From an uncultured Syntrophaceae bacterium (GTDB taxonomy: Bacteria > Desulfobacterota > Syntrophia > Syntrophales > UBA2210), in the NCBI GenBank assembly GCA_964540715.1, contig CAZINZ010000001.1, forward strand, positions 21,806 through 85,805: a stretch of DNA of 64,000 nucleotides, in the 5' to 3' direction. Positions 9,300 to 50,613 of the stretch are shown here, one piece after another; the first letter of the stretch is position 1; each line of letters starts with the position of its first letter. The notes under the pieces were generated by a model, which was given only the letters and a program-made list of their open reading frames with translations, had not been told where the DNA came from and ran no database searches. The position numbers and the translations under genes were made by a program.

Positions 9300-9374
9300 T
9301 GGTAGGCACGCAGGGATTTGAACCCTGGACCCCCACCGTGTCAAGGTGATGCTCTCCCCCTGAGCTACGTGCCT
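9300..9374 (-). tRNA. tRNA-Val (anticodon GAC)
   Basis: The reverse complement folds as a cloverleaf: acceptor AGGCACG/CGTGCCT, D arm GCTC..GAGC, anticodon arm TCACC-TTGACAC-GGTGG, T arm CAGGG-TTCAAAT-CCCTG, with an encoded CCA. Confidence 0.9.
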
Positions 9375-9452: not shown

Positions 9453-9992
9453 CTATGAGTTGTTTATGAATTTTATACCTTTGAAGATATAATCAAATCC
9501 GGAAATAACTGTAAAAAAAGCGGTGATCCAGAACAAGGTCACGATCATCGTATAATTAATATATTCAGGCGTGGACCTGAACATCAGTACAAGAAAAACT
9601 GTGAATAATTGTAATACAGTTGTAGCTTTGCTCACGTAAGAGGGGCGTATCTCAAAGGAAACCGCCATAAGAAAAAGCACAGACACGCCAAACAGGATTA
9701 TACAATCCCGGCTTATGACAACCACAGCAAGCCAGCCCGGGATAATATCCATAATCGACAAGGCAACAAAGGACGTTATTATTAATGCCTTATCCGCCAG
9801 CGGGTCCAGATACGAGCCCAGTATCGTCTTCTGTTTCAGTACCCTTGCCAAAAACCCGTCCAGCCCGTCCGTAATACCAGCAATGACAAAGACTAAAAGC
9901 GCATAAGAAAAAGAACCATGCATCAGAAGTATGACAAAGATCGGGACCAGTACTATGCGAAATAGTGTAAGCGTATTGGGAATGTTCATCAT
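9453..9992 (-). CDS. pgsA: CDP-diacylglycerol--glycerol-3-phosphate 3-phosphatidyltransferase (CDP-alcohol phosphatidyltransferase family)
   Basis: NIPNTLTLFRI... and the DGLDGFLAR(x8)G(x3)DPLAD motif. The start was chosen at MMNIPN (9992). The ORF-track extension overlaps the upstream gene. Confidence 0.85.
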   Translation of the reverse strand: MMNIPNTLTLFRIVLVPIFVILLMHGSFSYALLVFVIAGITDGLDGFLARVLKQKTILGSYLDPLADKALIITSFVALSIMDIIPGWLAVVVISRDCIILFGVSVLFLMAVSFEIRPSYVSKATTVLQLFTVFLVLMFRSTPEYINYTMIVTLFWITAFFTVISGFDYIFKGIKFINNS

Positions 9993-10008
9993 CTGCGATT
10001 CTGTCCTT

Positions 10009-10647
10009 CTACCACAATCCCCAGAATCTTTTTTCTGGAGGCGTTTTCCGCACAGAATCGGGACCATCGGGGAGACTGGAAAGGGTTTCATCAACAATCT
10101 CCCGGACAGCCTGCTCATAAAACTGGCATGCCTTCAATTCAAGCCTCATTCGGGTAAAATCATAGTGCCTGTCCGCCACCCTGTATCTTGAACTCCAGAG
10201 AATTGCCCCCGTTTCCGCGTCTTTTAATTCAAACAAAATAGAGACTTTTGTGGATCCATAGACGGTGATGAAAGAGGATTTCCACTCAAGCAGACTACAG
10301 TACATAACGGCATCTACACCCAGCAGTTTCCCGATAACCTCCGGTGAAACATCGCATCCACTGTTTGTTTCAGGGTCCCACCCACAATCCGCAGTCAATC
10401 TTTCGTCTATCACATCAAGTGGTATCCTGGGATATCCTTTGAAATACAGGGTTTCAAATACATCCTCCCTCACGATTTGCCCCGCCTGCTTGTCATTCGT
10501 TCTGTTGTCAACTGGCATCAGGGCAATGAGCCTTATTCCCATCTTGTTATAATCAGGAACAATGGTATGTGGAATCCCGGAGGCACATCCTGAAATGACA
10601 CAGGCAACAACACACAATAAAAACACTTTCTCTATTTTATCAATCAA
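10009..10647 (-). CDS. lipoprotein, DUF799/GNA1162-like (by eye), function unknown
   Basis: Lipobox VISGC at the N-terminus. The pattern LMPVDNRTND...FKGYPRIP...LLGVDAVMYCSLLEW resembles the DUF799 lipoprotein family. Confidence 0.5.
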   Translation of the reverse strand: MIDKIEKVFLLCVVACVISGCASGIPHTIVPDYNKMGIRLIALMPVDNRTNDKQAGQIVREDVFETLYFKGYPRIPLDVIDERLTADCGWDPETNSGCDVSPEVIGKLLGVDAVMYCSLLEWKSSFITVYGSTKVSILFELKDAETGAILWSSRYRVADRHYDFTRMRLELKACQFYEQAVREIVDETLSSLPDGPDSVRKTPPEKRFWGLW

Positions 10648-11744: not shown

Positions 11745-11778
11745 CAGAAAAAGGCCGGGAGCAAAAGCTCCCGGCCTC
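11745..11778 (-). terminator. rho-independent terminator after the Cache-protein gene
   Basis: The minus strand reads GGCCGGGAGC-tttt-GCTCCCGGCC followed by TTTTTCT. Confidence 0.8.
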
Positions 11779-11871
11779 CGGCTGTACGCCCTTTGAAAAA
11801 GATTTCACTCGGGGAAAACAGTACCCGAAAGTAAAAACTTCACTGAAATATTACCACGATATCTTCCTCTG

Positions 11872-13170
11872 CTAATCCTCATCATCGTAATAGTGCGGCT
11901 TCGCTCCTTCCGGAACTTCTGCCTCGATCGAACGAGTGATTCCCCTCGAAAGCAGTGTGGAGATCAGGAAGAGGATCAAGACCGCGATGACAAGAATTAA
12001 GATAATTGTTGTCAGCCACGCCTGCGCCTCTTTTTCTATCTTCTGAGAGGTCGCAAATGCCATCTCGTTAAATTTGTCTACATCAAGGCCCATCCCGATC
12101 CACCCAAAACCGGCAGGTTTGGGATAAGTTGCCGAGTAGAATGGGATCGGAGCATAGGCGACAAACTTGGTATGACTACCAAATTCATAGACCTTATCTC
12201 CCGAATTACCAGCGGTCGCTTCCTTCGCAACCTCAGGCAGCGCGGGATCCATGAAACCCAGTAAGGAGAGATTGAGAACCTCCTCACCCTTCTTCGTCAT
12301 ACTCTCCAATGTCTCACTCGTAAGAGGCAGAACGGGAGTTCCATCCGGGTATAGACCCGCTATATGGTAATCATCGGGGTGCGATATGACGAACCCCTTG
12401 TCATCAACCATATATGCGTAGTTTCCCGTAGATGAATCCGCTTCAAATACATAGCCTGCCTCGGTTGGTATAATACTGTCCGTAAATTTTGCAAGTTGCC
12501 TGACATCAAGGGCAAGAGTAATGAGACCTGCAAATCCCCGCTTATCAAACAGAGGTGTCGCCAGACGAATGATGCCCTCAAAGCGCTTTCCCTTTTCAAA
12601 ATCGGCCCGGTTCACATACCAGCCGGTAATGTGGGATACGTAGACATTTCCCTTGTCAAGATTTTTTGTCTTGATAAAAAAATCTTCCGACTTATAGGTC
12701 GTATTTTCGGGATCGCTCACATTCACCAGTTTGGATTTCGGCACGATCTTCCCGTCGACAATTTTGATAACCTCTTTACCCGCCTTGTTTACAAGGGCCA
12801 TTTCCACGTACAGAAGTTCGGAAGATTTGACAATTTTCCCGTTTCTCTTAATCCAGAGAGCCTTCCTGTTTTTAAGCATAAACTCCCTGTACGTCTCGGC
12901 TTTTGCTGGCAGAATGGTCGCCACGAGTGTGTCTTTCTCACATTCCTGCAGAAAAGAGGCAACATTCTCGGCCACGGCAACAGTGCGCATCATAATCTCT
13001 TCCTGCGCCTTCTGATCAAGTACAGCTGCCGCCCCTTTCTTCGATGTGTCCCCTAATTGGAAGATGCCATTGGCTATCAAAAAAGACGTCAGCAATAAGG
13101 GGATTACGATAAGCAGGAAGAATACCCTTGATACCGTAAAAAACTGCTTACCCTTTTTAGTTTCTGACAT
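11872..13170 (-). CDS. membrane-anchored periplasmic Cache-like sensor domain protein with no output domain
   Basis: 432 aa with an N-terminal TM (VFFLLIVIPLLLTSFLIANGIF) and a ~340-aa extracytoplasmic region with Cache-like blocks (ATPLFDKRGFAGLITLALDV, YAYMVDDKGFVISHPD). A second TM (WLTTIILILVIAVLILFLISTLL) is followed by only ~25 cytoplasmic residues. Confidence 0.65.
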   Translation of the reverse strand: MSETKKGKQFFTVSRVFFLLIVIPLLLTSFLIANGIFQLGDTSKKGAAAVLDQKAQEEIMMRTVAVAENVASFLQECEKDTLVATILPAKAETYREFMLKNRKALWIKRNGKIVKSSELLYVEMALVNKAGKEVIKIVDGKIVPKSKLVNVSDPENTTYKSEDFFIKTKNLDKGNVYVSHITGWYVNRADFEKGKRFEGIIRLATPLFDKRGFAGLITLALDVRQLAKFTDSIIPTEAGYVFEADSSTGNYAYMVDDKGFVISHPDDYHIAGLYPDGTPVLPLTSETLESMTKKGEEVLNLSLLGFMDPALPEVAKEATAGNSGDKVYEFGSHTKFVAYAPIPFYSATYPKPAGFGWIGMGLDVDKFNEMAFATSQKIEKEAQAWLTTIILILVIAVLILFLISTLLSRGITRSIEAEVPEGAKPHYYDDED

Positions 13171-13222
13171 TTTAATCTCCCCCTAACGTTTGTTAAATTT
13201 GAAGTTAGTTGCTCAGTGCTGA

Positions 13223-13600
13223 TTAACCCCAAAGAAAACTTGTGTAAGGGTTTGCATAGAGAAGAACAAGCGAAACGACAAGGGCATAAATGGCGATTGA
13301 TTCCGCCATAGCCATACCGACCAGCATTGTCATCATTATCTTTCCCTGAACGCCGGGGTTCCTTCCAACCGCACTACAGGCACCATTTGCGGCATTACCG
13401 ATACCGGCTCCGGCTCCGATCGCTCCGAGACCAATCGCCAAACCGGCTCCAATCATAGCACCTACGGCAAAGATAACCTTTATCAGAGCTCCCCCTTCAT
13501 CCGGGAGGGTCTCAGCTGCAAATACCATCGGTGAAGATAACAACAAAATCGCCGATGCCGCCAGCAGGGTTGATACCCATTTTACTGATTTCCTAAACAT
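13223..13600 (-). CDS. atpE: F-type ATP synthase subunit c paralog 1 with a signal-peptide-like N-terminal extension
   Basis: The C-terminal 85 aa are a classic c subunit (GLGAIGAGAGIG, GRNPGVQGK loop, MAMAESIAIYALVVSLVLLYANPY). The N-terminus MFRKSVKWVSTLLAASAILLLSSPMVFA-AE looks like a Sec signal with an AxA site. Confidence 0.85.
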   Translation of the reverse strand: MFRKSVKWVSTLLAASAILLLSSPMVFAAETLPDEGGALIKVIFAVGAMIGAGLAIGLGAIGAGAGIGNAANGACSAVGRNPGVQGKIMMTMLVGMAMAESIAIYALVVSLVLLYANPYTSFLWG

Positions 13601-13695
13601 TTTTTTCTCCTTTCCTCTTTGATACTTGGTTTTTATTCTTACTTTTTGCTCAAAAATCTTTTGGGCATGGCTCCTTTTGAAACCGCCAGTACACC

Positions 13696-13712
13696 TGCAA
13701 CAGATATGCCAA
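13696..13712 (-). promoter_or_regulatory. sigma-54 (-24/-12) promoter candidate for the atpE paralog 1 / Cache operon
   Basis: The minus strand reads TTGGCATATCTGTTGCA, with GG-N10-GC spacing and TGGCA/TTGCA cores matching YTGGCACGrNNNTTGCW. It lies ~85 nt upstream of the ATG at 13600. Confidence 0.6.
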
Positions 13713-13813
13713 TTGTGTCTTCACAACCATCTTTCTGTTTAACATACCGCGATTACTGTCAATATCACATATTACAATGCGGCGCAAGACGAGATCCGAT
13801 TCCGTCCGGTTTA

Positions 13814-13852
13814 ACCTTTCATTCAATTAGCCAGATAAATTGAACGAAAGGT
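13814..13852. promoter_or_regulatory. 15-bp-arm inverted repeat, candidate enhancer (UAS) for the adjacent NtrC-type activator
   Basis: ACCTTTCATTCAATT-N9-AATTGAACGAAAGGT with 1 mismatch, located ~105-140 bp upstream of the sigma-54 element in a divergent intergenic region. Confidence 0.5.
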
Positions 13853-13900
13853 AAAACGGTCGGGGGGGCGGGGGAGACAGGAAACTATAAATGATTTTTA

Positions 13901-13929
13901 TTGAAAATTAGCATCAAGGTCTGTAGAGT
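13901..13929 (+). promoter_or_regulatory. possible sigma-70 promoter for the small TM ORF / kinase / regulator operon
   Basis: TTGAAA (13901-13906), 17 nt spacer, TAGAGT (13924-13929). Confidence 0.3.
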
Positions 13930-14001
13930 ACCAATTCTTCAGTGCCCACTTTTTTAAAGCCTTTATTTCAAGATGGGAATACTAAAACGTGAGAGGTGAC
14001 A

Positions 14002-14178
14002 ATGCAGGAAATACTGACAGTGATAACCTATCTGGTTGTCTGGTTTATCTGCAAAAAGGTTCTGGGTATTCAGAGCGGACTTGTTACACTTGTCATCTCT
14101 CTTGGTGCGGCCGTGTCCGTTTATGTGATTTTCGCAACCAAGTGGTACGAAGACAAAAACAAAAATGATGACAGATAA
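14002..14178 (+). CDS. small membrane protein (two predicted TM helices), function unknown
   Basis: MQEILTVITYLVVWFICKKVLGIQSGLVTLVISLGAAVSVYVIFATKW. The ATG at 14002 lies 5 nt after GAGAGGTGA. It sits 30 nt upstream of the kinase gene. Confidence 0.4.
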   Translation: MQEILTVITYLVVWFICKKVLGIQSGLVTLVISLGAAVSVYVIFATKWYEDKNKNDDR

Positions 14179-14207
14179 AAAGAGGCTGTCTGGAATTTCA
14201 AGGAATC

Positions 14208-16883
14208 ATGGATAAGACAGACACTGGCAGCAATGGTTATAAGTCCTTCCGGCCCAATATGAGAATTTCCATCTGGCTGACCACAGCAGTTGTTATCGCA
14301 TTTATTCTCATCCTGGCGCTTACCGTCAACTATGCGCGCGAAAAGGGCATAGTTGAACAGTTCAGCCGGCAGCAGATGGCCATTGCCAGGGGAACAGCCA
14401 CCGGGATCGAAGATTTCATTTCCAGCGTTGAAAAGAGCATGATAATTATTTCCAGGCTGCCCTCATGCCCCCTATGCCCATGCGCCACGGAAATCACGCC
14501 CGAAACCACCAGACAGAGTATAAAGGTAATCTACGACGATCTGGGTGGAGCGGTTGAGTTTATAGTAGTAAAAAATAAGGCTGGCGTGGTGACAGCCAGA
14601 TATCCCCCTTCCATTTTTGAAAGAATAACAGATGAAAGCCTCAAAAACATTCCTTATCTTCAGAAGATACGAGAAACGGGAAAAACGTATATAGGTGACA
14701 TGGAACTGACATGGAAGGGAGAGGCAGAAAACAGAGTCCAATCTGTAGTCGTCGCCGTTCCCAAATACGATTCAGAGAACAGATTCTCCGGAGCAGTGAT
14801 GACGGTACTTTCTTTCTCCGCTATTATTGACCGCTATATCAAAGTCAAGAGCGAGATATCAGGCTGCTGCTGGATAATAAACAGTGACGGAACCATACTC
14901 GTACGCCCAGAAAAGACCCATGCCTGCACGGAACTGGAGACACTGGGAAACGCAAAAACTCTCGACGGAGCACGTCTTAAAGACATCCTTACGAACAGAA
15001 AAGAAGGTTATGGTGAATACATGTTTCCCGTAGTGCAGGGGGGAACGAAAAAAAACATTATAGCCTACGCCCCGATTAATGCAGGCTCGGGACGCTGGTT
15101 CATCGTAATCGCCACACCCTACAGCAAAACAGTTTTATTGGCGCGAAAGGGTTTTGGAAACATCATATTCGGGACCCTCGGACTTATTATCGCGGTTATT
15201 ATCGCCGGCATCTCGACAGCCTACTACGGCGTAAAACAACTGCGTTTCAAAGAAGAGCTGAAGCGACTCAGGGAAAGGGAGGGGTGGCAGGAAAAGCTGC
15301 TGAAAGAGCATAAAACAACGGAGGGTGTTATTGAAGGATCACCGATTCCCACCTTTGTTCTGGACAGAGAACATCGCGTCATCCTCTGGAACAGGGCTTG
15401 TTCCGAACTGACGGGTGCTGCCGCCGGTGACATGGTAGGCACAGATCATCATTCCATCCCCTTTTATAAAAGCAAACGTCCCACGATAGCCGACATAATC
15501 GTCGATTCCGATATGGATACCCTCAAACAATACTACGACACCAAGAACGTACGGGAATCGGAGACGGTTACGGGTGGGGCTTACGAAGCCACGGATTACA
15601 TCACAAATCTTGGAGGGGAAAACCGGCACATATATTTTCTGGCTGCCCCGATATATGATGAGACTGGAAAAATTATTGCGGCCATTGAAACCATTCAGGA
15701 TGTGACTTCACAGAGAGAAATGGATATCCGGCTGGAGGAATATGCCGAAACTCTCCAGAACGAACTGACCGAAAATATCGGCCTCCGCAGGGAGGTCGAG
15801 AAATTGTACAACTATCTCCAGTCCATCATCGACAGTTTGCCGGACAAGATTTTCGATCTCAGCAGGGACGGGATCATCAACTATGTAAGCAGGGATGTGA
15901 AGAAAGATGGAGGAATCATCTCCGAGAAATTTTGGGGGAAGCACTTCTCCGACTTTGTTGACGAGGAAAACAGGCAGTTTGTCATGGACAGATGGAAGGA
16001 CGCAAAGAAGGGAATATTCACTGCCTACGAAATGACGGTAACCGCAAAGGACGGTTCCCGGAGAAACCTGCTGATAACACCCCGACCGGTCAAGGAAACG
16101 GACCGATATATCCTTGTTCAGAGGGATATCACGGAGTTCAAGGCACTGGAGAGAAAATTCTACGAGAGCCAGAAGCTTGCCGCTATCGGACAGCTTTCAG
16201 CCGGCATAGCCCATGAGGTTCGAAATCCCTTGTCCTCGATAAAAATGAGTCTCCAGATCCTTGAAAAACGTATGAAGCCGAAGGGAAACGACTCGAAAAG
16301 ATTCCAGATTGCCGGGCGGGAAGTCGGACATCTTGAAAAACTCGTTAATGACATACTCATTTACGCCAGGCCATCCGATCCCATGAAAAAACCTTCTGAC
16401 ATAGAAAAGATCATCGGTCATGCCCTCGCGATGGCCGAAAAATCTGTGTCGGACAAACACATCCGGGTGGAGACAGTCCTCGCAGAAGATCTCCCTTCAC
16501 TGAACGTGGACCCGGCAATGCTGGAACAGGCCTTTCTTAATATCTATCACAACGCCATTGACGCGATGGAGGATGGCGGAAAACTCTCAATATCCACGAG
16601 GCAAACAAACGACCGGGTGCTCGTCGAGGTCACGGATGACGGGTGTGGAATCTCCAAGGAAGACATACCCCATATCTTCAACCCCTTCTTCACCAAGAAA
16701 AGTTACGGTACAGGACTCGGGCTTACACAGATCAAAAAGATTATGGACCTGCACCGGGGCACAATAGAAATCTCGAGCGAAGAGGGACAGGGAACCAGCG
16801 TCGTCGTAGCCTTTTCAGCGAAAACAGACGGAGAATATCATGAGCCGGAGAGAAACCATCAAGACTCTCCTGAAGAACCATAA
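14208..16883 (+). CDS. sensor histidine kinase (TM, periplasmic Cache-like domain, TM, 2 PAS, HisKA, HATPase)
   Basis: 891 aa with TM1 ISIWLTTAVVIAFILILALTV and TM2 IIFGTLGLIIAVIIAGISTAYYG. It has PAS-like blocks, the H-box SAGIAHEVRNPLSSI, N-box NIYHNAIDAM, and G-boxes DDGCGI and GTGLGL. Confidence 0.9.
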   Translation: MDKTDTGSNGYKSFRPNMRISIWLTTAVVIAFILILALTVNYAREKGIVEQFSRQQMAIARGTATGIEDFISSVEKSMIIISRLPSCPLCPCATEITPETTRQSIKVIYDDLGGAVEFIVVKNKAGVVTARYPPSIFERITDESLKNIPYLQKIRETGKTYIGDMELTWKGEAENRVQSVVVAVPKYDSENRFSGAVMTVLSFSAIIDRYIKVKSEISGCCWIINSDGTILVRPEKTHACTELETLGNAKTLDGARLKDILTNRKEGYGEYMFPVVQGGTKKNIIAYAPINAGSGRWFIVIATPYSKTVLLARKGFGNIIFGTLGLIIAVIIAGISTAYYGVKQLRFKEELKRLREREGWQEKLLKEHKTTEGVIEGSPIPTFVLDREHRVILWNRACSELTGAAAGDMVGTDHHSIPFYKSKRPTIADIIVDSDMDTLKQYYDTKNVRESETVTGGAYEATDYITNLGGENRHIYFLAAPIYDETGKIIAAIETIQDVTSQREMDIRLEEYAETLQNELTENIGLRREVEKLYNYLQSIIDSLPDKIFDLSRDGIINYVSRDVKKDGGIISEKFWGKHFSDFVDEENRQFVMDRWKDAKKGIFTAYEMTVTAKDGSRRNLLITPRPVKETDRYILVQRDITEFKALERKFYESQKLAAIGQLSAGIAHEVRNPLSSIKMSLQILEKRMKPKGNDSKRFQIAGREVGHLEKLVNDILIYARPSDPMKKPSDIEKIIGHALAMAEKSVSDKHIRVETVLAEDLPSLNVDPAMLEQAFLNIYHNAIDAMEDGGKLSISTRQTNDRVLVEVTDDGCGISKEDIPHIFNPFFTKKSYGTGLGLTQIKKIMDLHRGTIEISSEEGQGTSVVVAFSAKTDGEYHEPERNHQDSPEEP

Positions 16884-16936
16884 TTGTACCTACAGGGAAC
16901 AAATTTGAACCTCCAACAAAGGGAGATACACAGAAC

Positions 16937-18301
16937 ATGTCCAAGATTCTTGTCATTGACGACGATAGATCCATTTGCGAAAGCCTGAAACTCTACCTGA
17001 CAGAGGAGGGGCATGAAGCACACACCGCCTCCACCGGCACGGAAGGTTTGAACAAATTTGTAGGAACACAACCCGATGTGGTGATCCTTGACATCAGACT
17101 TCCTGACATAGACGGATTCACCGTCCTTGAGGACCTGCGGGAAGATGATGAAAAGGTCAAGGTAATTATGATAACCGCCCATCACGACATGGAAACAACG
17201 ATCAAAGCTATGAAGGAAGGTGCTTTCGACTATATCCATAAACCCATCAACATTGATGAACTGGACATAGCCATCAGAAAGGCACTGAACACCATAGAGA
17301 TGGAGAAAAAAATAAGCGGCCTTCTTATGGAACCATCACGTGATTTCAAGGTGGGAGATATTATAGGCACAGGAAGTGCGATGAAGGAGGTATTCAAGAC
17401 CATTGGTGTTGCCTCTCAGAACAAGGCAACCATACTGATACAGGGCGAGAGCGGCACGGGAAAGGAACTGATCGCCAAGGTGATACACTACAACACGTCA
17501 AGGGATGAGCCTTATATAGCGGTCAACTGTTCAGCCATTGTGGAGACTCTCCTGGAATCCGAACTGTTCGGCCACGAAAAAGGCTCCTTCACCGGGGCAA
17601 TAGCCAGAAAACAGGGGAAGTTTGAACTTGCCCGCTATGGCACAATATTTCTGGACGAGATAAGCGAGATGTCCATAAACCTTCAGGCCAAGCTTCTCCG
17701 GGTGCTTCAGGAAATGGAGTTTGAACGGGTAGGAGGGAAAGACAGTGTCAAGGTAAACGCGAGGATTATAGCCGCAACCAATAAGGACCTCCGAACGTTG
17801 GTGAAGGAGGGGAAGTTCAGAGATGATCTTTTCTACCGCCTGAATATCGTGTCCATACACATCCCGCCGCTGAGGAAAAGGCGCGAAGACATAGAACCGC
17901 TCGTTAAATACCTGCTCAACAAGATAAACAGGGAACTTCACAAACGGATTGCCGGTATTTCCGATAAGATGATGGACACCTTTCTCAAATACAAATGGCC
18001 CGGAAATATCAGAGAACTGGAAAACCTGCTGGTCAGGGCTGCTGTTGTTTCGAAAGGACAGATCCTCGGAAAAGAAGACTTTCCGGACCTCATGGAAGAT
18101 GCGAACAGCAAAGAGACAGACAGAGACATCGTCCGGGATGAACCGGAAAGGCCCATGACCCTCGACGAAATAGAAGAAATCCATATAAAAAAGGTTATCA
18201 GGGAAAACGAAAAAAACAAGGGAGAAATCTGCGAAATCCTCGGAATTTCCCGTCCCACCTTTGAGAGAAAGCTGGAAAAATATAATATTACCTTTGAATA
18301 A
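16937..18301 (+). CDS. sigma-54-dependent response regulator (NtrC family bEBP)
   Basis: Receiver domain (ILVIDDD...DVVILDIRLPDIDG), AAA+ domain (GESGTGKE, GSFTGA loop, RVGG, FRDDLFYRLN) and a C-terminal Fis-type HTH (ICEILGISRPTFERKLEKY). Confidence 0.9.
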   Translation: MSKILVIDDDRSICESLKLYLTEEGHEAHTASTGTEGLNKFVGTQPDVVILDIRLPDIDGFTVLEDLREDDEKVKVIMITAHHDMETTIKAMKEGAFDYIHKPINIDELDIAIRKALNTIEMEKKISGLLMEPSRDFKVGDIIGTGSAMKEVFKTIGVASQNKATILIQGESGTGKELIAKVIHYNTSRDEPYIAVNCSAIVETLLESELFGHEKGSFTGAIARKQGKFELARYGTIFLDEISEMSINLQAKLLRVLQEMEFERVGGKDSVKVNARIIAATNKDLRTLVKEGKFRDDLFYRLNIVSIHIPPLRKRREDIEPLVKYLLNKINRELHKRIAGISDKMMDTFLKYKWPGNIRELENLLVRAAVVSKGQILGKEDFPDLMEDANSKETDRDIVRDEPERPMTLDEIEEIHIKKVIRENEKNKGEICEILGISRPTFERKLEKYNITFE

Positions 18302-18308
18302 AAGCAAA

Positions 18309-18342
18309 GGGGGTTATCCTGACTCGTATCAGGATGACCCCC
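18309..18342. terminator. strong hairpin between the convergent regulator and atpB genes
   Basis: GGGGGT-t-ATCCTGA ctcgta TCAGGAT-g-ACCCCC. The T-rich tail (CTTTGCTTT) is only on the minus strand, so assignment to either gene is uncertain. Confidence 0.45.
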
Positions 18343-18486
18343 CATGTAAAATTCAACATTCACCATTCAACATCTACGATGAGAAAATCAGGAATGGTTA
18401 CCTCTTTTCCTAACCCCGATAAACGGGATAAGTGCGTTAACGAAATTATTTTCTGCCAAAGAACGCAGAAAGTAATTTCTAACTTT

Positions 18487-19140
18487 CTAATGTGCCTCCT
18501 CCATCGCGAGTTGTATATAGATCATCGACAACATGATAAAGACCAGGGTCTGGATGGCGGATGTAAAGATCATAAGCACAAAAACCGGAAGCGGAACGAG
18601 GAAGGGAACCAGCATCAGGACGATTGCCAGTACGAGATCCTCACCCATAATGTTCCCGAACAACCGCACTGAGAGAGAAATCGGTCGTGCGAGATGACTC
18701 ACGAGTTCGATGGGCAGCATAATGGGAGTCATCCACCAGACAGGCCCCATGAACTGCTTTACATACTTGAAACCGTGTACCCAGATTCCCACTATATGCG
18801 TCATAACAAACACGACCAGCGCCATGGAAACGGTGGTATTGAGGTTGCTTGTCGGCGACTCAAACCCGGGGATAAGGCCCAGCAGGTTGGCGGTTATAAT
18901 AAAGAGGGCAGATGTCGCTATCAGTGGGAAAAATCTGAGGCCAGTAGGTCCCATGACATCAAACATCAAATTCTTGATGCCCCCCAAAATTACTTCAAAC
19001 ACATGTTGCAATCTTCCGGGATATATGCTGAGTTTCCGAGTCGCCAAGAAAGAGAACAGGGCCAGCAACAGCATAACAACCCAAGTATACGTCACATGAG
19101 GTGGAAGGGGGATTTTACCTAAAAATAATAAGGGATGCAT
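18487..19140 (-). CDS. atpB: F-type ATP synthase subunit a
   Basis: 217 aa containing LPIELVSHLARPISLSVRLFGNIMGED, the conserved Arg helix of subunit a. Confidence 0.9.
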   Translation of the reverse strand: MHPLLFLGKIPLPPHVTYTWVVMLLLALFSFLATRKLSIYPGRLQHVFEVILGGIKNLMFDVMGPTGLRFFPLIATSALFIITANLLGLIPGFESPTSNLNTTVSMALVVFVMTHIVGIWVHGFKYVKQFMGPVWWMTPIMLPIELVSHLARPISLSVRLFGNIMGEDLVLAIVLMLVPFLVPLPVFVLMIFTSAIQTLVFIMLSMIYIQLAMEEAH

Positions 19141-19157
19141 TTTTCTTTTTGAACCTC

Positions 19158-19541
19158 CTATAATAATGGGTTTTTCAAATTTGTGCCTATAACTGTTACT
19201 ATGACATTTATCACAACCAGCGAAAGGCCGAGCAGAAGCCCGAAGACATCAACCGGAGCCCTGGTTATGACAAAAAAAAGCACAACTCCCGTAACAATGA
19301 ACCTGATATAATATTTTGCCATCATAAAGGGCTTTGCCCTGTGTGCGTGCTTCAGAAAGGTGCCCCGCAGATCCCTCGAGAGCCAGTAAAAATTTACTAT
19401 ACTAATAAACCCTCCCAGCAGCACCCCCAGCGTAAATCTCCCCGGCAGGAACAGAAAACTGACTGCAAGGAGCACACCGAGCACCACCCAGTTCCCTCTC
19501 TCAATGTTTCTCTGCATGATGGTTTTTTTTATGTCGACCAT
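19158..19541 (-). CDS. atpI: ATP synthase subunit I-like membrane protein
   Basis: 127 aa with 4 hydrophobic segments, positioned directly upstream of atpB. The start may be the internal MQRNIERGNW (19517). Confidence 0.6.
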   Translation of the reverse strand: MVDIKKTIMQRNIERGNWVVLGVLLAVSFLFLPGRFTLGVLLGGFISIVNFYWLSRDLRGTFLKHAHRAKPFMMAKYYIRFIVTGVVLFFVITRAPVDVFGLLLGLSLVVINVIVTVIGTNLKNPLL

Positions 19542-19791
19542 CGTCTACAGCCTCATCCGGGCTTTTCTCCTTATCGGGAAAGGTGCTCTTAATAAAAAGA
19601 TAAAAATTCCTGAAGCCGGCGGCAACACCTATCAACAAAAACAGGGGGGTAAAAATATTATCCGTCCCTAGCTTCTTGTCAAGATACACACCGATCATGA
19701 GACAGCCAAAGATCGCGATAACCATGGCAAGACCAAGGCTCGCGGCATATCCCATCTGGAACGCCATCTTCTTTTTACTGCCTTCACCCAT
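19501..19791 (-). CDS. atpZ: AtpZ/AtpR-type small membrane protein
   Basis: MAFQMGYAASLGLAMVIAIFGCLMIGVYLDKKLGT..FTPLFLLIGVAAGFRNFY matches the AtpZ (PF09527-like) pattern. The start was chosen at MGEGSKKK. Confidence 0.6.
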   Translation of the reverse strand: MGEGSKKKMAFQMGYAASLGLAMVIAIFGCLMIGVYLDKKLGTDNIFTPLFLLIGVAAGFRNFYLFIKSTFPDKEKSPDEAVDDGRHKKNHHAEKH

Positions 19792-19872
19792 TGCCGAGCC
19801 GCCTATAACACAGAGGTTTTGTGAAGTCAATCTATATTGAGGGAATCTGTATCAAGAGATCCGGACCCCATA

Positions 19873-20319
19873 TCACAGCCTGAATCTCGCATCGATCTTC
19901 AATCTGCGTTTAACTGGCATGCTTACAATATTGCTGATGCCAGTATCCTTCGAAATATCCGACAGCGACTTTTCAATCTCATTTTTAGTGGGCGCTATAA
20001 ACGTGAACCACACATTATATTCATAGGCCCTCAGGTAATTGTGGGTGACACCCCTGTAAGAATTGACAACATCCACAAACTGTTCAAGCCTGTCGGTGGG
20101 CACCTTCGCGGCACACAACGTACTCGTGAAACCAAGATTCCCGGTATCAAAAACAGCGCCTATCCTGCGGATAATGCCTTCATTTTTAAGCCTCCCGACA
20201 CGTTCCAGGGCATCGTCTTCATCGATACCAACAAGCTTTCCAATGGTCCTGAACGGCCTGGCGTCAAGGGGAAACCCTTCCTGTATTATGTTGAGAATTT
20301 CCCTGTCTAAACGATCCAT
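19873..20319 (-). CDS. siroheme decarboxylase subunit (AhbA/AhbB, Lrp/AsnC-like NirD/H family)
   Basis: 148 aa: LDREILNIIQEGFPLDARPFRTIGKLVGIDEDDALERVGRLKNEGIIRRIGAVFD...VTHNYLR...NVWFT. It is a paralog of the gene at 26078-26572. Confidence 0.75.
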   Translation of the reverse strand: MDRLDREILNIIQEGFPLDARPFRTIGKLVGIDEDDALERVGRLKNEGIIRRIGAVFDTGNLGFTSTLCAAKVPTDRLEQFVDVVNSYRGVTHNYLRAYEYNVWFTFIAPTKNEIEKSLSDISKDTGISNIVSMPVKRRLKIDARFRL

Positions 20320-26077: not shown

Positions 26078-26572
26078 CTAAAAGTACTCCATACTGCTTT
26101 TTTTGAATTCCTTGAGACTCCTGAGAATTTTGAATTTCCCGATGCCGATGGCCGAGGCGACGTCGTCCGTAAATCGCTCCATCCCGTCTTTCTCTGAGGT
26201 CTCTTCGAGATCCTCCCCGGCCAGATGCACCATCGTGAAGATGTTATATACGCCCTCAAGCGGAGGCGTTCTCTCATAGCAATGGCTAATCTCCCTGTAT
26301 GACGCCAACAGTGCGCCCGTCTCTTTACATCTCTCTTCCGGAACGGCCCAGACGACCATGGCATTCTCGGCGAAACCCGCTTTCTGGTGCCTCAGAACCG
26401 CGCCGAATCTGCGCATGATTCCCCTCTCTTTCAATCCTTTCAATCCATCGATGACATCGTTTTCACTTATTCCGATTCTTTTCCCGATAGTGTCAAAAGG
26501 TCTTCTATCAAGAGGGATATTTCCCTGTACCTCCTGTGCGACTCTTTTGTCCCTATCTGTTATTACAGCCAT
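26078..26572 (-). CDS. siroheme decarboxylase subunit (second AhbA/AhbB paralog)
   Basis: ITDRDKRVAQEVQGNIPLDRRPFDTIGKRIGISENDVIDGLKGLKERGIMRRFGAVL...ISHCYER...YNIFTMVH. The start was chosen at MAVITD (26572). Its stop abuts the hemL ATG. Confidence 0.75.
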   Translation of the reverse strand: MAVITDRDKRVAQEVQGNIPLDRRPFDTIGKRIGISENDVIDGLKGLKERGIMRRFGAVLRHQKAGFAENAMVVWAVPEERCKETGALLASYREISHCYERTPPLEGVYNIFTMVHLAGEDLEETSEKDGMERFTDDVASAIGIGKFKILRSLKEFKKSSMEYF

Positions 26573-26781
26573 AATTCCCTGCTTCCCGATTGGTCCTCTT
26601 CCGCAGTCTCCATACCACATGCGGATATTTTTGACAAATTTTCCTTGACAACTGCTGCCTTCACTATTAGATATACTGGGTTGTTTTTTCACGTTAATCC
26701 TATCCCTGCGAATAAAGAGAGTCTGAGACAGGATCGTATCATGGGGAAATCGGCAAATATTATATTTGGAGGTATTTTGGT

Positions 26782-27153
26782 ATGAGAAAATCTTTAAAAG
26801 GCATCACTGTTTTTATGATCAGCGTGGGGCTTCTGCTTGTAACCGCCGCTATCGCGGTCGCAGCTGAGGCTTCCCCCGACACCATTGCCAATAATAAGGC
26901 TCTGGTAGTAGCGTGCAGTGTTATCGCCGCCGCTATTGTTATGGGGATAGGCGCACTTGGACCAGGACTGGGAATGGGACAGGCAACTGGCGGCGCTTCA
27001 AACGCAGTCAGCAGGAATCCCGACGCTCAGGGTAAGATTATGCTTACGATGCTGGTCGGCATGGCAATGACAGAATCCATCGCTATCTACGCCCTGGTGG
27101 TGGCACTGGTTATAGTCTACGCCAACCCTCTGCTCAAATTAATAGCTGGATAA
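26782..27153 (+). CDS. atpE: F-type ATP synthase subunit c paralog 2 with a signal-peptide-like N-terminal extension
   Basis: MRKSLKGITVFMISVGLLLVTAAIAVA-AE is followed by GALGPGLGMGQATGG, an SRNPDAQGK loop and MAMTESIAIYALVVALVIVYANPL. The SD is GGAGG. Confidence 0.85.
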   Translation: MRKSLKGITVFMISVGLLLVTAAIAVAAEASPDTIANNKALVVACSVIAAAIVMGIGALGPGLGMGQATGGASNAVSRNPDAQGKIMLTMLVGMAMTESIAIYALVVALVIVYANPLLKLIAG

Positions 27154-49463: not shown

Positions 49464-49666
49464 GCAGCAACGGGAGGGGTCAGGAAAAGACATGTTGCGC
49501 CCGAGGAATGATAGCCCCGAGGCACAATCGCATAGGGACGGGCGCACGATATATCTCGCCCAATACCTTGAGAGAAATGGGACTGCTTCTGCCATATTTC
49601 TCCCCCGCCTATGCCGTAGTAACCACTTTTTTGAACCTTACAAAAGATTTGGCGCCCTGTTGCTGC
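49464..49666 (-). ncRNA. candidate structured RNA downstream of zapA (6S/SsrS-like position; unproven)
   Basis: This lies within a 350-nt gap with no plausible ORF. Nested long-range helices on the minus strand are GCAGCAAC(a)GGG (49666-49655) with CCCGTTGCTGC (49474-49464), and GCATAGGCGGG (49614-49604) with CCCG(tc)CCTATGC (49542-49530). Local hairpins also occur (GAGAAAT...ATTTCTC). Confidence 0.3.
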
Positions 49667-49762
49667 TTCAGGCTTCCCACACATCCCAACGTCAGGTTTC
49701 AGTGAGCATGCACACCACTAACAAGGAAGGGGCCCCGATTATAAGATTGTTGGTTCAAAAAA

Positions 49763-50074
49763 CTAAAGGTCATCACGCACATCGCAGGGGATTAACTTGC
49801 TTTTTTTATCTATATAACTTATTAACCCGTCTACTTCGTTTTCAAACCTGCTATGCAGGTCCTTTTTTTCTTCTTTTTCCTTAAACAATTCTTCGGCAAC
49901 ATTTAAAGCAACCAATATGGCAATATCTGAAGTTGTTACATCCTCTGAGACATCTTTTATTTCCTTAGCCCTCTCATTTATATAACGGACAATCTTACTT
50001 ACATATTCATCCCCTTTATCACTCAGGACTGAAAGCTCCCGTCCTATTACCCTTATTTCGAAACGCTGTTTCAA
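49763..50074 (-). CDS. zapA: cell division protein ZapA
   Basis: 103 aa: IRVIGRELSVLSDKGDEYVSKIVRYINERAKEI...ILVALNVAEEL. Confidence 0.8.
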   Translation of the reverse strand: MKQRFEIRVIGRELSVLSDKGDEYVSKIVRYINERAKEIKDVSEDVTTSDIAILVALNVAEELFKEKEEKKDLHSRFENEVDGLISYIDKKSKLIPCDVRDDL

Positions 50075-50537: not shown

Positions 50538-50613
50538 TGGTGGGTCAGGGCAGAATCGAACTGCCGACACCGGGATTTTCAGTCCCGTGCTCTACCGACT
50601 GAGCTACCGACCC
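50538..50613 (-). tRNA. tRNA-Phe (anticodon GAA)
   Basis: The reverse complement is GGGTCGGTAGCTCAGTCGGTAGAGCACGGGACTGAAAATCCCGGTGTCGGCAGTTCGATTCTGCCCTGACCCACCA. It is a cloverleaf with the CTGAAAA anticodon loop. Confidence 0.95.

Follow-up and report, generated by a model that had tools for sequence, protein, structure and literature searches.

We analyzed a 64,000-nt stretch of the genome of an uncultured Syntrophaceae bacterium (contig CAZINZ010000001.1, positions 21,806-85,805; assembly GCA_964540715.1), referred to below as the window, and focused on two divergent operons found there. In one operon, a gene for an F-type ATP synthase c subunit (here called c1) is followed by a gene for a membrane protein made up of a Cache sensor module without a transmitter (the Cache-only protein). 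The other operon encodes a small membrane protein (tm60), a sensor histidine kinase, and an NtrC-class response regulator, a predicted enhancer-binding protein (EBP) for sigma-54. On the evidence of gene order in related genomes, these five genes are an autonomous cassette conserved in Syntrophales. An earlier note on this DNA had singled out the locus, and every sequence feature that it listed was found where it had placed it when open reading frames (ORFs), Pfam domains, and motifs were scanned. The features needed below, with domains called at Pfam and NCBIfam equivalog cut-offs, are as follows (TM, transmembrane).

11745-11779, minus strand: predicted intrinsic terminator closing the c1-Cache operon, GGAGGCCGGGAGC-UUUU-GCUCCCGGCCUUUUUC
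11872-13170, minus strand: Cache-only protein, a transmitter-less TM-dCache-TM membrane protein of 432 aa (dCache_1)
13223-13600, minus strand: c1, F-type ATP synthase c subunit of 125 aa (PF00137, TIGR01260)
13696-13712, minus strand: predicted sigma-54 (-24/-12) promoter, TTGGCATATCTGTTGCA, GG-N10-GC, resembling TGGCA-N6-TTGCA
13809-13857, no strand assigned: putative enhancer (upstream activating sequence), inverted repeat TTTCGTTCAAT-N11-ATTGAAYGAAA, recognized from its arms and its conservation
13901-13929, plus strand: weak sigma-70-like promoter candidate for the tm60-kinase-EBP operon, TTGAAA-17-TAGAGT, 9/12, from a consensus scan only
13996-14178, plus strand: tm60, 60-aa membrane protein with two helices, encoded at the head of the regulator operon (ORF)
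14208-16883, plus strand: sensor histidine kinase, dCache-PAS-PAS-HisKA-HATPase (Pfam)
16937-18301, plus strand: NtrC-class response regulator, the predicted EBP (REC, Sigma54_activat, AAA_lid, HTH_8)
18310-18343, no strand assigned: long near-perfect hairpin between the convergent EBP and atpB genes, GGGGGTTATCCTGA...TCAGGATGACCCCCC, recognized in the sequence itself
18487-19140, minus strand: atpB (PF00119, E 2e-50)
19158-19541, minus strand: atpI (PF03899)
19501-19830 (ATG at 19791), minus strand: atpZ (PF09527)
26782-27153, plus strand: c2, second c-subunit paralog, apparently monocistronic (PF00137-type, TIGR01260)

Gene linkage and the predicted sigma-54 promoter region

A profile of the Cache-only protein retrieved 279 relatives in species-representative genomes, and the best 80 of these 279 loci were compared. 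Nearly all of the 80 are labeled as Syntrophales, Syntrophaceae, or "Deltaproteobacteria" metagenome-assembled genomes (MAGs). In 74 of them, c1 is the gene immediately ahead of the Cache gene, and the other six are interrupted by a contig end or by a run of N inside c1. The gap between the two genes is 52 nt in the window, and its median across loci is also about 52 nt. The strong terminator that had been described behind the pair, at 11745-11778, was recovered as a 13-bp GC stem with a U tract (free energy, -37.2 kcal/mol; z = -3.9). No known RNA element was detected in the c1 leader by an Rfam scan, and a consensus scan of the c1 strand between the enhancer and c1 gave no sigma-70-like promoter.

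Adjacency of the two-component system was scored only where the upstream flank extended for at least 5.5 kb (n = 52 loci), and in 46 of these the divergent tm60-kinase-EBP operon adjoins c1-Cache. The tm60 gene, whose product has no family match in Pfam or NCBIfam, is kept at the same position in 59 loci by tblastn. The EBP is 73-94% identical across loci and combines PF00072, PF00158 (Sigma54_activat, E 3.5e-67), and PF02954, with a GSFTGA loop read from its sequence. It falls below every named NCBIfam equivalog cut-off, the best being AtoC (483.6 versus 714 bits), with ZraR at 346 versus 760 bits. In one Syntrophales MAG that has no adjacent two-component system (L045, 54-3977), V-type ATPase genes, with subunits B, D, I, and K assigned from ORF sequences, are located ~4 kb upstream of c1-Cache.

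The -24/-12 element pointed out by the earlier note is present on the minus strand between the divergent operons. Its 3' end lies 95 nt ahead of the c1 ATG in the correct orientation, and its sequence (TGGCATATCTGTTGCA, 13696-13711, minus strand) has a single match in the window. When both strands of the whole locus set (1.13 Mb) were counted, TGGCA-N6-TTGC[AT] had 67 matches, 64 of which sit 60-200 nt upstream of c1. The promoter was found in essentially all of the 74 testable loci; three apparent exceptions are variant -12 elements, and the few loci without an exact match bear variants such as TGGCAC-N5-GTGCA. The six spacer bases differ between lineages, and the GG and GC elements are constant.

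Farther upstream is an inverted repeat with arms of 20 nt each (13809-13828 and 13838-13857; 90% complementary), longer than those of the palindrome originally reported there. Its core pattern is unique in the window even at 3 mismatches (0.05 matches expected). Both halves could be scored in 71 loci, and 56 of these carry TTTCGTTCAAT-N11(-13)-ATTGAAYGAAA, centered 123.5 +/- 2 nt upstream of the -24 TGG, with a spacer whose sequence is not conserved among loci. The left half-site, at up to 2 mismatches, is present in at least 61 of the 74 loci in which it was scored, at 126-142 nt from the promoter (mode, 139 nt). Most loci scored as lacking the repeat have the left half together with a degenerate right half at the matching position. 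A third conserved element, GTTAAAC (or GTTCAAC), stands directly after the right half-site (13809-13815 and orthologous positions) and may be an additional contact for the EBP; the extended enhancer consensus reads aTTttActTTTcGTTCAAT-N11-aTTGAAtaAAAtGTTAAAc.

Because promoter and enhancer are conserved in relatives, both stand well beyond chance. As far as comparison of sequences can tell, a functional sigma-54 promoter with an enhancer would be expected to leave just this pattern, the inverted repeat at a near-fixed promoter distance being the putative EBP site. The earlier note had proposed that c1 and the Cache gene depend on sigma-54 as one unit, controlled by the kinase and EBP next to them, and had suggested scanning related genomes for the motif and the linkage. 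The promoter, half-site, and two-component system frequencies given above are the outcome of that scan, and promoter, repeat, and linkage together lend the proposed unit comparative support.

The Cache-only protein and its relatives

Pfam finds dCache_1 as the sole domain of the Cache-only protein, at a marginal 46.1 bits against a cut-off of 45. AlphaFold2 modeling gave a pLDDT of 50 from an alignment of 18 close homologs and of 89 from 69 sequences that included fused relatives. In the model with a pLDDT of 89, the N-terminal helix crosses the membrane and extends as the long dCache stalk, and two PAS-like modules and a C-terminal TM helix that runs to about residue 417 complete the fold. 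The cytoplasmic part comprises merely ~15-22 residues, and the end of the chain ~20 residues past the second TM helix agrees with the earlier description of a Cache protein without a transmitter. Foldseek matched the model to dCache ligand-binding domains of chemoreceptors and kinases with a probability of 1.00 and E of about 1e-10, the top matches being Mlp24, vpHK1S-Z8, PctA/B, and TlpA/C. The protein thus shares the dCache_1 fold and the membrane topology of sensors such as Mlp24, PctA/B/C, TlpA/C, and vpHK1S-Z8. Unlike them, it has no output domain and is always paired with a c-subunit gene.

An output domain is likewise missing in 120 of 120 homologs of 429-449 aa among the matches listed. 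An exhaustive profile search found the entire TM-dCache-TM module to be homologous to the sensor ends of kinases, methyl-accepting chemotaxis proteins, and HAMP-GAF proteins, and the Cache-only protein stops exactly where HAMP begins in the fused homologs. It is a genuine sensor module without a transmitter. Derivation as a truncated copy of the neighboring kinase's sensor was ruled out, as there is no significant similarity to the kinase dCache. The invariant residues of the Cache-only protein are acidic or histidine: E123, E133, E162, D222, H225, D256, and H264. The amino acid-binding signature R-x-W-Y is replaced by T-Y-K-S-E-D-F-F, which makes an amino acid an improbable ligand. Over the same genomes, the ectodomain has an identity of 0.67 versus 0.38 for the periplasmic domain of the kinase, and the first TM helix (TM1) is the most conserved segment of the protein at 0.80.

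More distant relatives differ in their surroundings. The closest fused relative is the P0122 kinase, whose sensor is 53% identical. This dCache-PAS-GAF-PAS histidine kinase (L081/L082, 6001-9417) is encoded inside an Mrp/Mnh-type cation:proton antiporter cluster that also holds two Usp genes and two response regulators, a hint that sensors of this family may monitor ion or energy status. A distant clade of Cache-only proteins, P0123 (L083 and L084), is 38% identical and is again encoded after a c-subunit gene. There the pair (L083/L084, 1235-9124) has a sigma-70-like promoter and a 222-nt intergenic gap, and both the sigma-54 promoter and the adjacent two-component system are absent. A complete rnf operon follows directly downstream, and a divergent PHO4 transporter gene lies upstream. 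A metagenome scan for further members of this clade returned only 2 loci. Linkage to c subunits was ruled out for the relatives that consist of dCache and HAMP only (P0127 and P0128), which have no c-subunit neighbor; the linkage is therefore specific to the group of ~435 aa.

One alternative is that the Cache-only protein senses together with the adjacent kinase or modulates it by feedback, c1 being merely co-regulated. Its gene would then lie in the regulated operon, as does that of the periplasmic protein ZraP for ZraSR, or the protein would work in the way that YycH and YycI act on WalK. Such a role would fit a complete sensor module whose chain stops where HAMP starts in its homologs, whose gene belongs to the operon targeted by a divergent two-component system, and whose TM1 is highly conserved. 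Against it, there is no sequence similarity to the kinase's own dCache. The c-Cache pair also occurs without an adjacent two-component system in 6 of the 52 loci and without the sigma-54 promoter in the L083 clade. Cache proteins that stand alone are atypical, as over 90% of Cache domains come fused to output modules (PMC12889525), and this speaks for the co-sensor reading. The much slower evolution of this ectodomain relative to that of the kinase is nonetheless unexpected for partners that sense together. Since the pair outlives the two-component system and the sigma-54 promoter in the distant clade, and since the protein evolves like a structural component, a role linked to c1 is favored over that of a pure co-sensor. 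We consider co-sensing rather unlikely as an explanation, and it could coexist with a c1-linked role.

The c-subunit paralogs and the atpZIB genes

Both c subunits in the window look like standard members of the family. c1 scores 69.4 bits against PF00137 (cut-off, 24; E 3e-19), and the F0 subunit C equivalog TIGR01260 (cut-off, 43.95) is passed by c1 with 45.1 bits and by c2 with 49.4 bits. The two are 48% identical; c2 had gone unused in the earlier note. The c2 gene is located ~7 kb upstream of atpZ, divergent from an ahbA-like/hemL block, and has a hairpin of the form GGGGAG...CTCCCC plus T6 downstream. A sigma-70 promoter scan upstream of c2 gave no convincing candidate on the coding strand. 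In a sequence search of the PDB, F-type c rings were the best matches for both paralogs, and the ring of Acetobacterium woodii (4BEM) ranked first for each. c1 has the GxGxGxG motif of the Gly-rich helix 1. Among its orthologs, Glu65, Ser66, Tyr70, and the R-N-P loop are kept in 74-75 of 75, with Glu65 and Arg45 in all 75. The most conserved segments in 74 orthologs are the F1-contacting RNP loop (0.97 identity) and helix 2 (0.92), which fits a working rotor subunit.

In HMMER and MAFFT alignments, position 32 (Ilyobacter tartaricus numbering) is Ile in c1 and Met in c2 rather than Gln, and position 67 is Ile, Val, or Leu in both rather than Thr. The Na+ ligand set Gln32/Glu65/Ser66/Thr67/Tyr70 is thus incomplete, with Glu65, Ser66, and Tyr70 in place and positions 32 and 67 differing. 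A difference between the ion sites of c1 and c2 was considered and dropped, as there is no Na+ signature and no residue that consistently separates the paralogs. Assignment to the N-ATPase c subunit (TIGR03322; cut-off, 130.85) was ruled out at 67.6 bits for c1 and 74.5 bits for c2. Both paralogs carry a signal-peptide-like N-terminal extension of ~28 residues with basic, hydrophobic, and AxA regions (MFRKSVKW...VFA|AE). As the extension is common to c1 and c2, it leaves c1-specific regulation unexplained. In one subclade (L038, L040, L058, and L070), a c2-like gene lies convergent to the Cache gene ~300-450 nt downstream, so that both paralogs are adjacent there.

The atpZ-atpI-atpB genes of the window (18487-19830) are not followed by a c-subunit gene, c1 being 4.9 kb further on, and atpE is also missing downstream of atpZ-atpI-atpB in all three relatives examined outside the window's clade (L086, L087, and L088). 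The usual site of the cassette is between an engB-like GTPase gene and ppdK, rpoD, dnaG, yqeY, a HIT-family gene, and hisF, with no atp genes nearby. It sits beside atpB only in the window's closest relatives (L002-L016). In the outgroup L087, whose atpB is 76% identical, atpZ-atpI-atpB is directly followed by a small ORF and FlgT_N-like, GNA1162-like, and FecR genes, and then by pgsA, thrS, infC, rpmI, rplT, and pheS; in the window, the genes that follow atpB in L087 are those on the other flank of the cassette. This flanking gene order in relatives indicates that it was in this lineage that the cassette came to be inserted between atpB and the genes on the thrS side. The hairpin at 18310-18343, which the terminator scan did not call, is probably a bidirectional terminator at the insertion boundary. 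On the contig of L057, the L088 order of an arfB-like gene, c2, divergent ahbA-like, hemL, gmd, an epimerase gene, atpZ, atpI, and atpB matches the window from c2 to atpB, and it is c2, not c1, that is syntenic with atpZIB. In the genome behind L015, c1-Cache is found elsewhere, attached to the thrS side, and atpZIB is isolated, with a DDE transposase gene on either side of it. These two DDE_3/HTH_33 genes (L086, 880-1914 and 15359-16393) are consistent with rearrangement mediated by insertion sequences in the genome where c1-Cache and atpB are separated.

These comparisons bear on the overall reading of the earlier note, which had combined a sigma-54-dependent unit under the kinase and EBP with an Fo operon split by a two-component system. 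The first part is supported. The second is not: the cassette is autonomous elsewhere, atpZ-atpI-atpB of L087 runs directly into the genes that flank the cassette in the window, atpE is missing after atpB in the three relatives examined outside the window's clade, and c2 is the paralog syntenic with atpZIB.

They also bear on a simpler explanation, in which c1 is the housekeeping atpE, sigma-54 and the two-component system serve to fix a basal or growth-rate-linked level of its expression without any remodeling, and the Cache-only protein is an unrelated passenger. The presence of c1 in every locus recovered, its full complement of standard c-subunit features, and the three atpZIB clusters without atpE outside the window's clade would all be expected of a housekeeping gene. 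So would the two long-contig genomes behind L010 and L015, for which an indirect check showed no c2 ortholog; if c1 is the sole c subunit there, it would be housekeeping and not conditional. Yet c2 orthologs share a contig or genome with the c1 cassette in at least three relatives, which with the window makes at least four genomes in which c1 coexists with the paralog that is syntenic with atpZIB. A passenger is also hard to reconcile with c1-Cache pairing in every testable locus at ~52 nt and its persistence in the distant clade. We regard this explanation as unlikely.

Another possibility is that c1 and the Cache-only protein make up a membrane device separate from F1Fo, such as a c-ring ion conduit controlled by a ligand-binding ectodomain. 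The pairing is strict, the cassette is usually far from atp genes, the closest fused sensor relative sits in an Mrp-type antiporter cluster, and the distant pair adjoins rnf. Against it, the F1-binding loop is the most conserved part of c1 (0.97), c1 passes the F0 subunit C equivalog model, and a bacterial c ring that stands free and has its own function is, to our knowledge, without precedent. We regard such a device as very improbable.

Other features of the window were noted in passing. Two siroheme-decarboxylase-like (NirDL-HTH/AsnC) genes are present at 19873-20319 and 26078-26692 (both minus strand). Between them are a sugar-nucleotide block of DegT-like, UDP-glucuronate-decarboxylase-like, GDP-fucose-synthase-like, and GDP-mannose-dehydratase-like genes and hemL, and the separation looks like an insertion into a heme biosynthesis pair. 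The longest ORFs of the pgsA-like gene (9453-10118, minus strand) and the GNA1162-like lipoprotein gene (10009-10647, minus strand) share ~110 nt, and the true pgsA start is probably downstream of the first ATG. At the gathering threshold, Rfam identified a 6S RNA (49598-49793, minus strand; 80.6 bits) and two tRNA genes (9303-9374 and 50541-50613, both minus strand).

A proposed signal-controlled second rotor subunit

Taken together, we favor a reading, at a probability of roughly 60%, in which the cassette places c1 and the Cache-only protein under the control of the kinase, the EBP, and sigma-54, c1 enters the Fo ring, and the Cache-only protein acts with c1. The dCache-PAS-PAS kinase, co-transcribed with tm60, would phosphorylate the NtrC-class EBP. 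The EBP would bind the inverted repeat TTTCGTTCAAT-N11-ATTGAAYGAAA, centered ~123 bp upstream of the -24 element, and activate sigma-54-dependent transcription of a bicistronic operon predicted to end at 11745-11779. One product would be c1, a putatively signal-peptide-bearing but otherwise standard F-type c subunit, and the other a TM-dCache-TM protein that appears to have lost its transmitter. The most likely place for c1 is the Fo rotor ring of the only F1Fo ATP synthase of the cell, whose atpZ-atpI-atpB operon includes no c gene. There c1 would replace or mix with the separately encoded c2, such that rotor composition would follow the signal. The Cache-only protein most likely works with c1 in the membrane, perhaps as an assembly or regulatory partner. 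Comparative support is strong for the predicted path from kinase to EBP, enhancer, sigma-54 promoter, and c1-Cache transcript; binding of the EBP to the repeat, the presence of c1 in Fo, and the role of the Cache-only protein are what we infer beyond it. In a more specific version, for syntrophs close to the thermodynamic limit, the cassette would be a gear or brake of the ATP synthase worked by a signal. On a cue sensed by the kinase, c1 would replace or mix with c2 and alter the stoichiometry or properties of the ring, and with them the ion/ATP ratio, and the ligand-binding Cache-only protein would dock through its conserved TM1 on the periplasmic side of a ring containing c1 and control its assembly or rotation. 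This version is speculative and distinctly unlikely as stated.

It is also important to point out what weighs against the favored reading. The ion-binding residues of c1 and c2 are alike, which leaves no visible functional reason for a switch, and in the two genomes for which c2 was not seen, mentioned above, c1 would be a housekeeping gene if it is their only c subunit. The sigma-54 motif of the window is weak when taken alone, with 0.33 matches expected by chance and at least one in 27 of 100 shuffles.

The individual parts of the cassette have counterparts in known systems. Divergent two-component systems with sigma-54 target operons are known from the NtrC-AtoC-ZraR class, as in zraSR-zraP of Escherichia coli. 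In the cassette, as in zraSR-zraP, the genes for a kinase and a REC-AAA+-HTH activator are divergent from a sigma-54 promoter, this promoter is preceded at ~100-150 bp by an inverted-repeat enhancer, and the target operon encodes an extracytoplasmic protein that could feed back on the kinase. The cassette departs from that system in its targets, a c-subunit paralog and a full TM-dCache-TM module. The c subunit of Aquifex aeolicus has a cleavable N-terminal signal peptide, and the N-terminal extensions of c1 and c2 resemble it. For several c paralogs in one genome and their mixing in one ring, the F1Fo of A. woodii (PDB 4BEM) is a precedent. Its paralogs are encoded in the atp operon, one of them as a duplicated, hairpin-fused form, and its ring binds Na+, whereas c1 and c2 are single hairpins encoded at scattered sites, lack the Gln32/Thr67 Na+ ligands, and, in the case of c1, would be under sigma-54/two-component control. 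N-ATPases (alternate F1Fo, TIGR03322) likewise bring an additional F-type c subunit into a genome, but no atpDCQRBEFAG operon is present here. Within the parts of the literature retrieved by term on atpE and sigma-54, the Syntrophus ATP synthase, stand-alone Cache proteins, and sigma-54 regulon surveys, neither sigma-54 control of a c subunit nor the pairing of a c subunit with a Cache protein is described. The cassette is thus built from parts of known kinds, and the combination and the c-linked, output-less Cache family appear to be undescribed.

The cassette provides a comparatively validated pair of predicted sigma-54 promoter and enhancer for an uncharacterized EBP, as well as a large and strongly conserved family of output-less dCache proteins whose apparent partner is a c subunit and not a signaling domain. 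It also calls for a correction to annotation, as in this lineage and in the three relatives examined atpB has no atpE after it and both c genes are detached from atpB.

Syntrophales such as Syntrophus and Smithella live on tiny increments of free energy, and both the ion/ATP ratio of the ATP synthase and what reverse electron transport costs are decisive for them. Our analysis suggests that energy-limited syntrophs adjust the rotor of their ATP synthase in response to a signal. If this is true, a conserved, signal-controlled second rotor subunit would offer a testable handle on how these organisms tune energy conservation.

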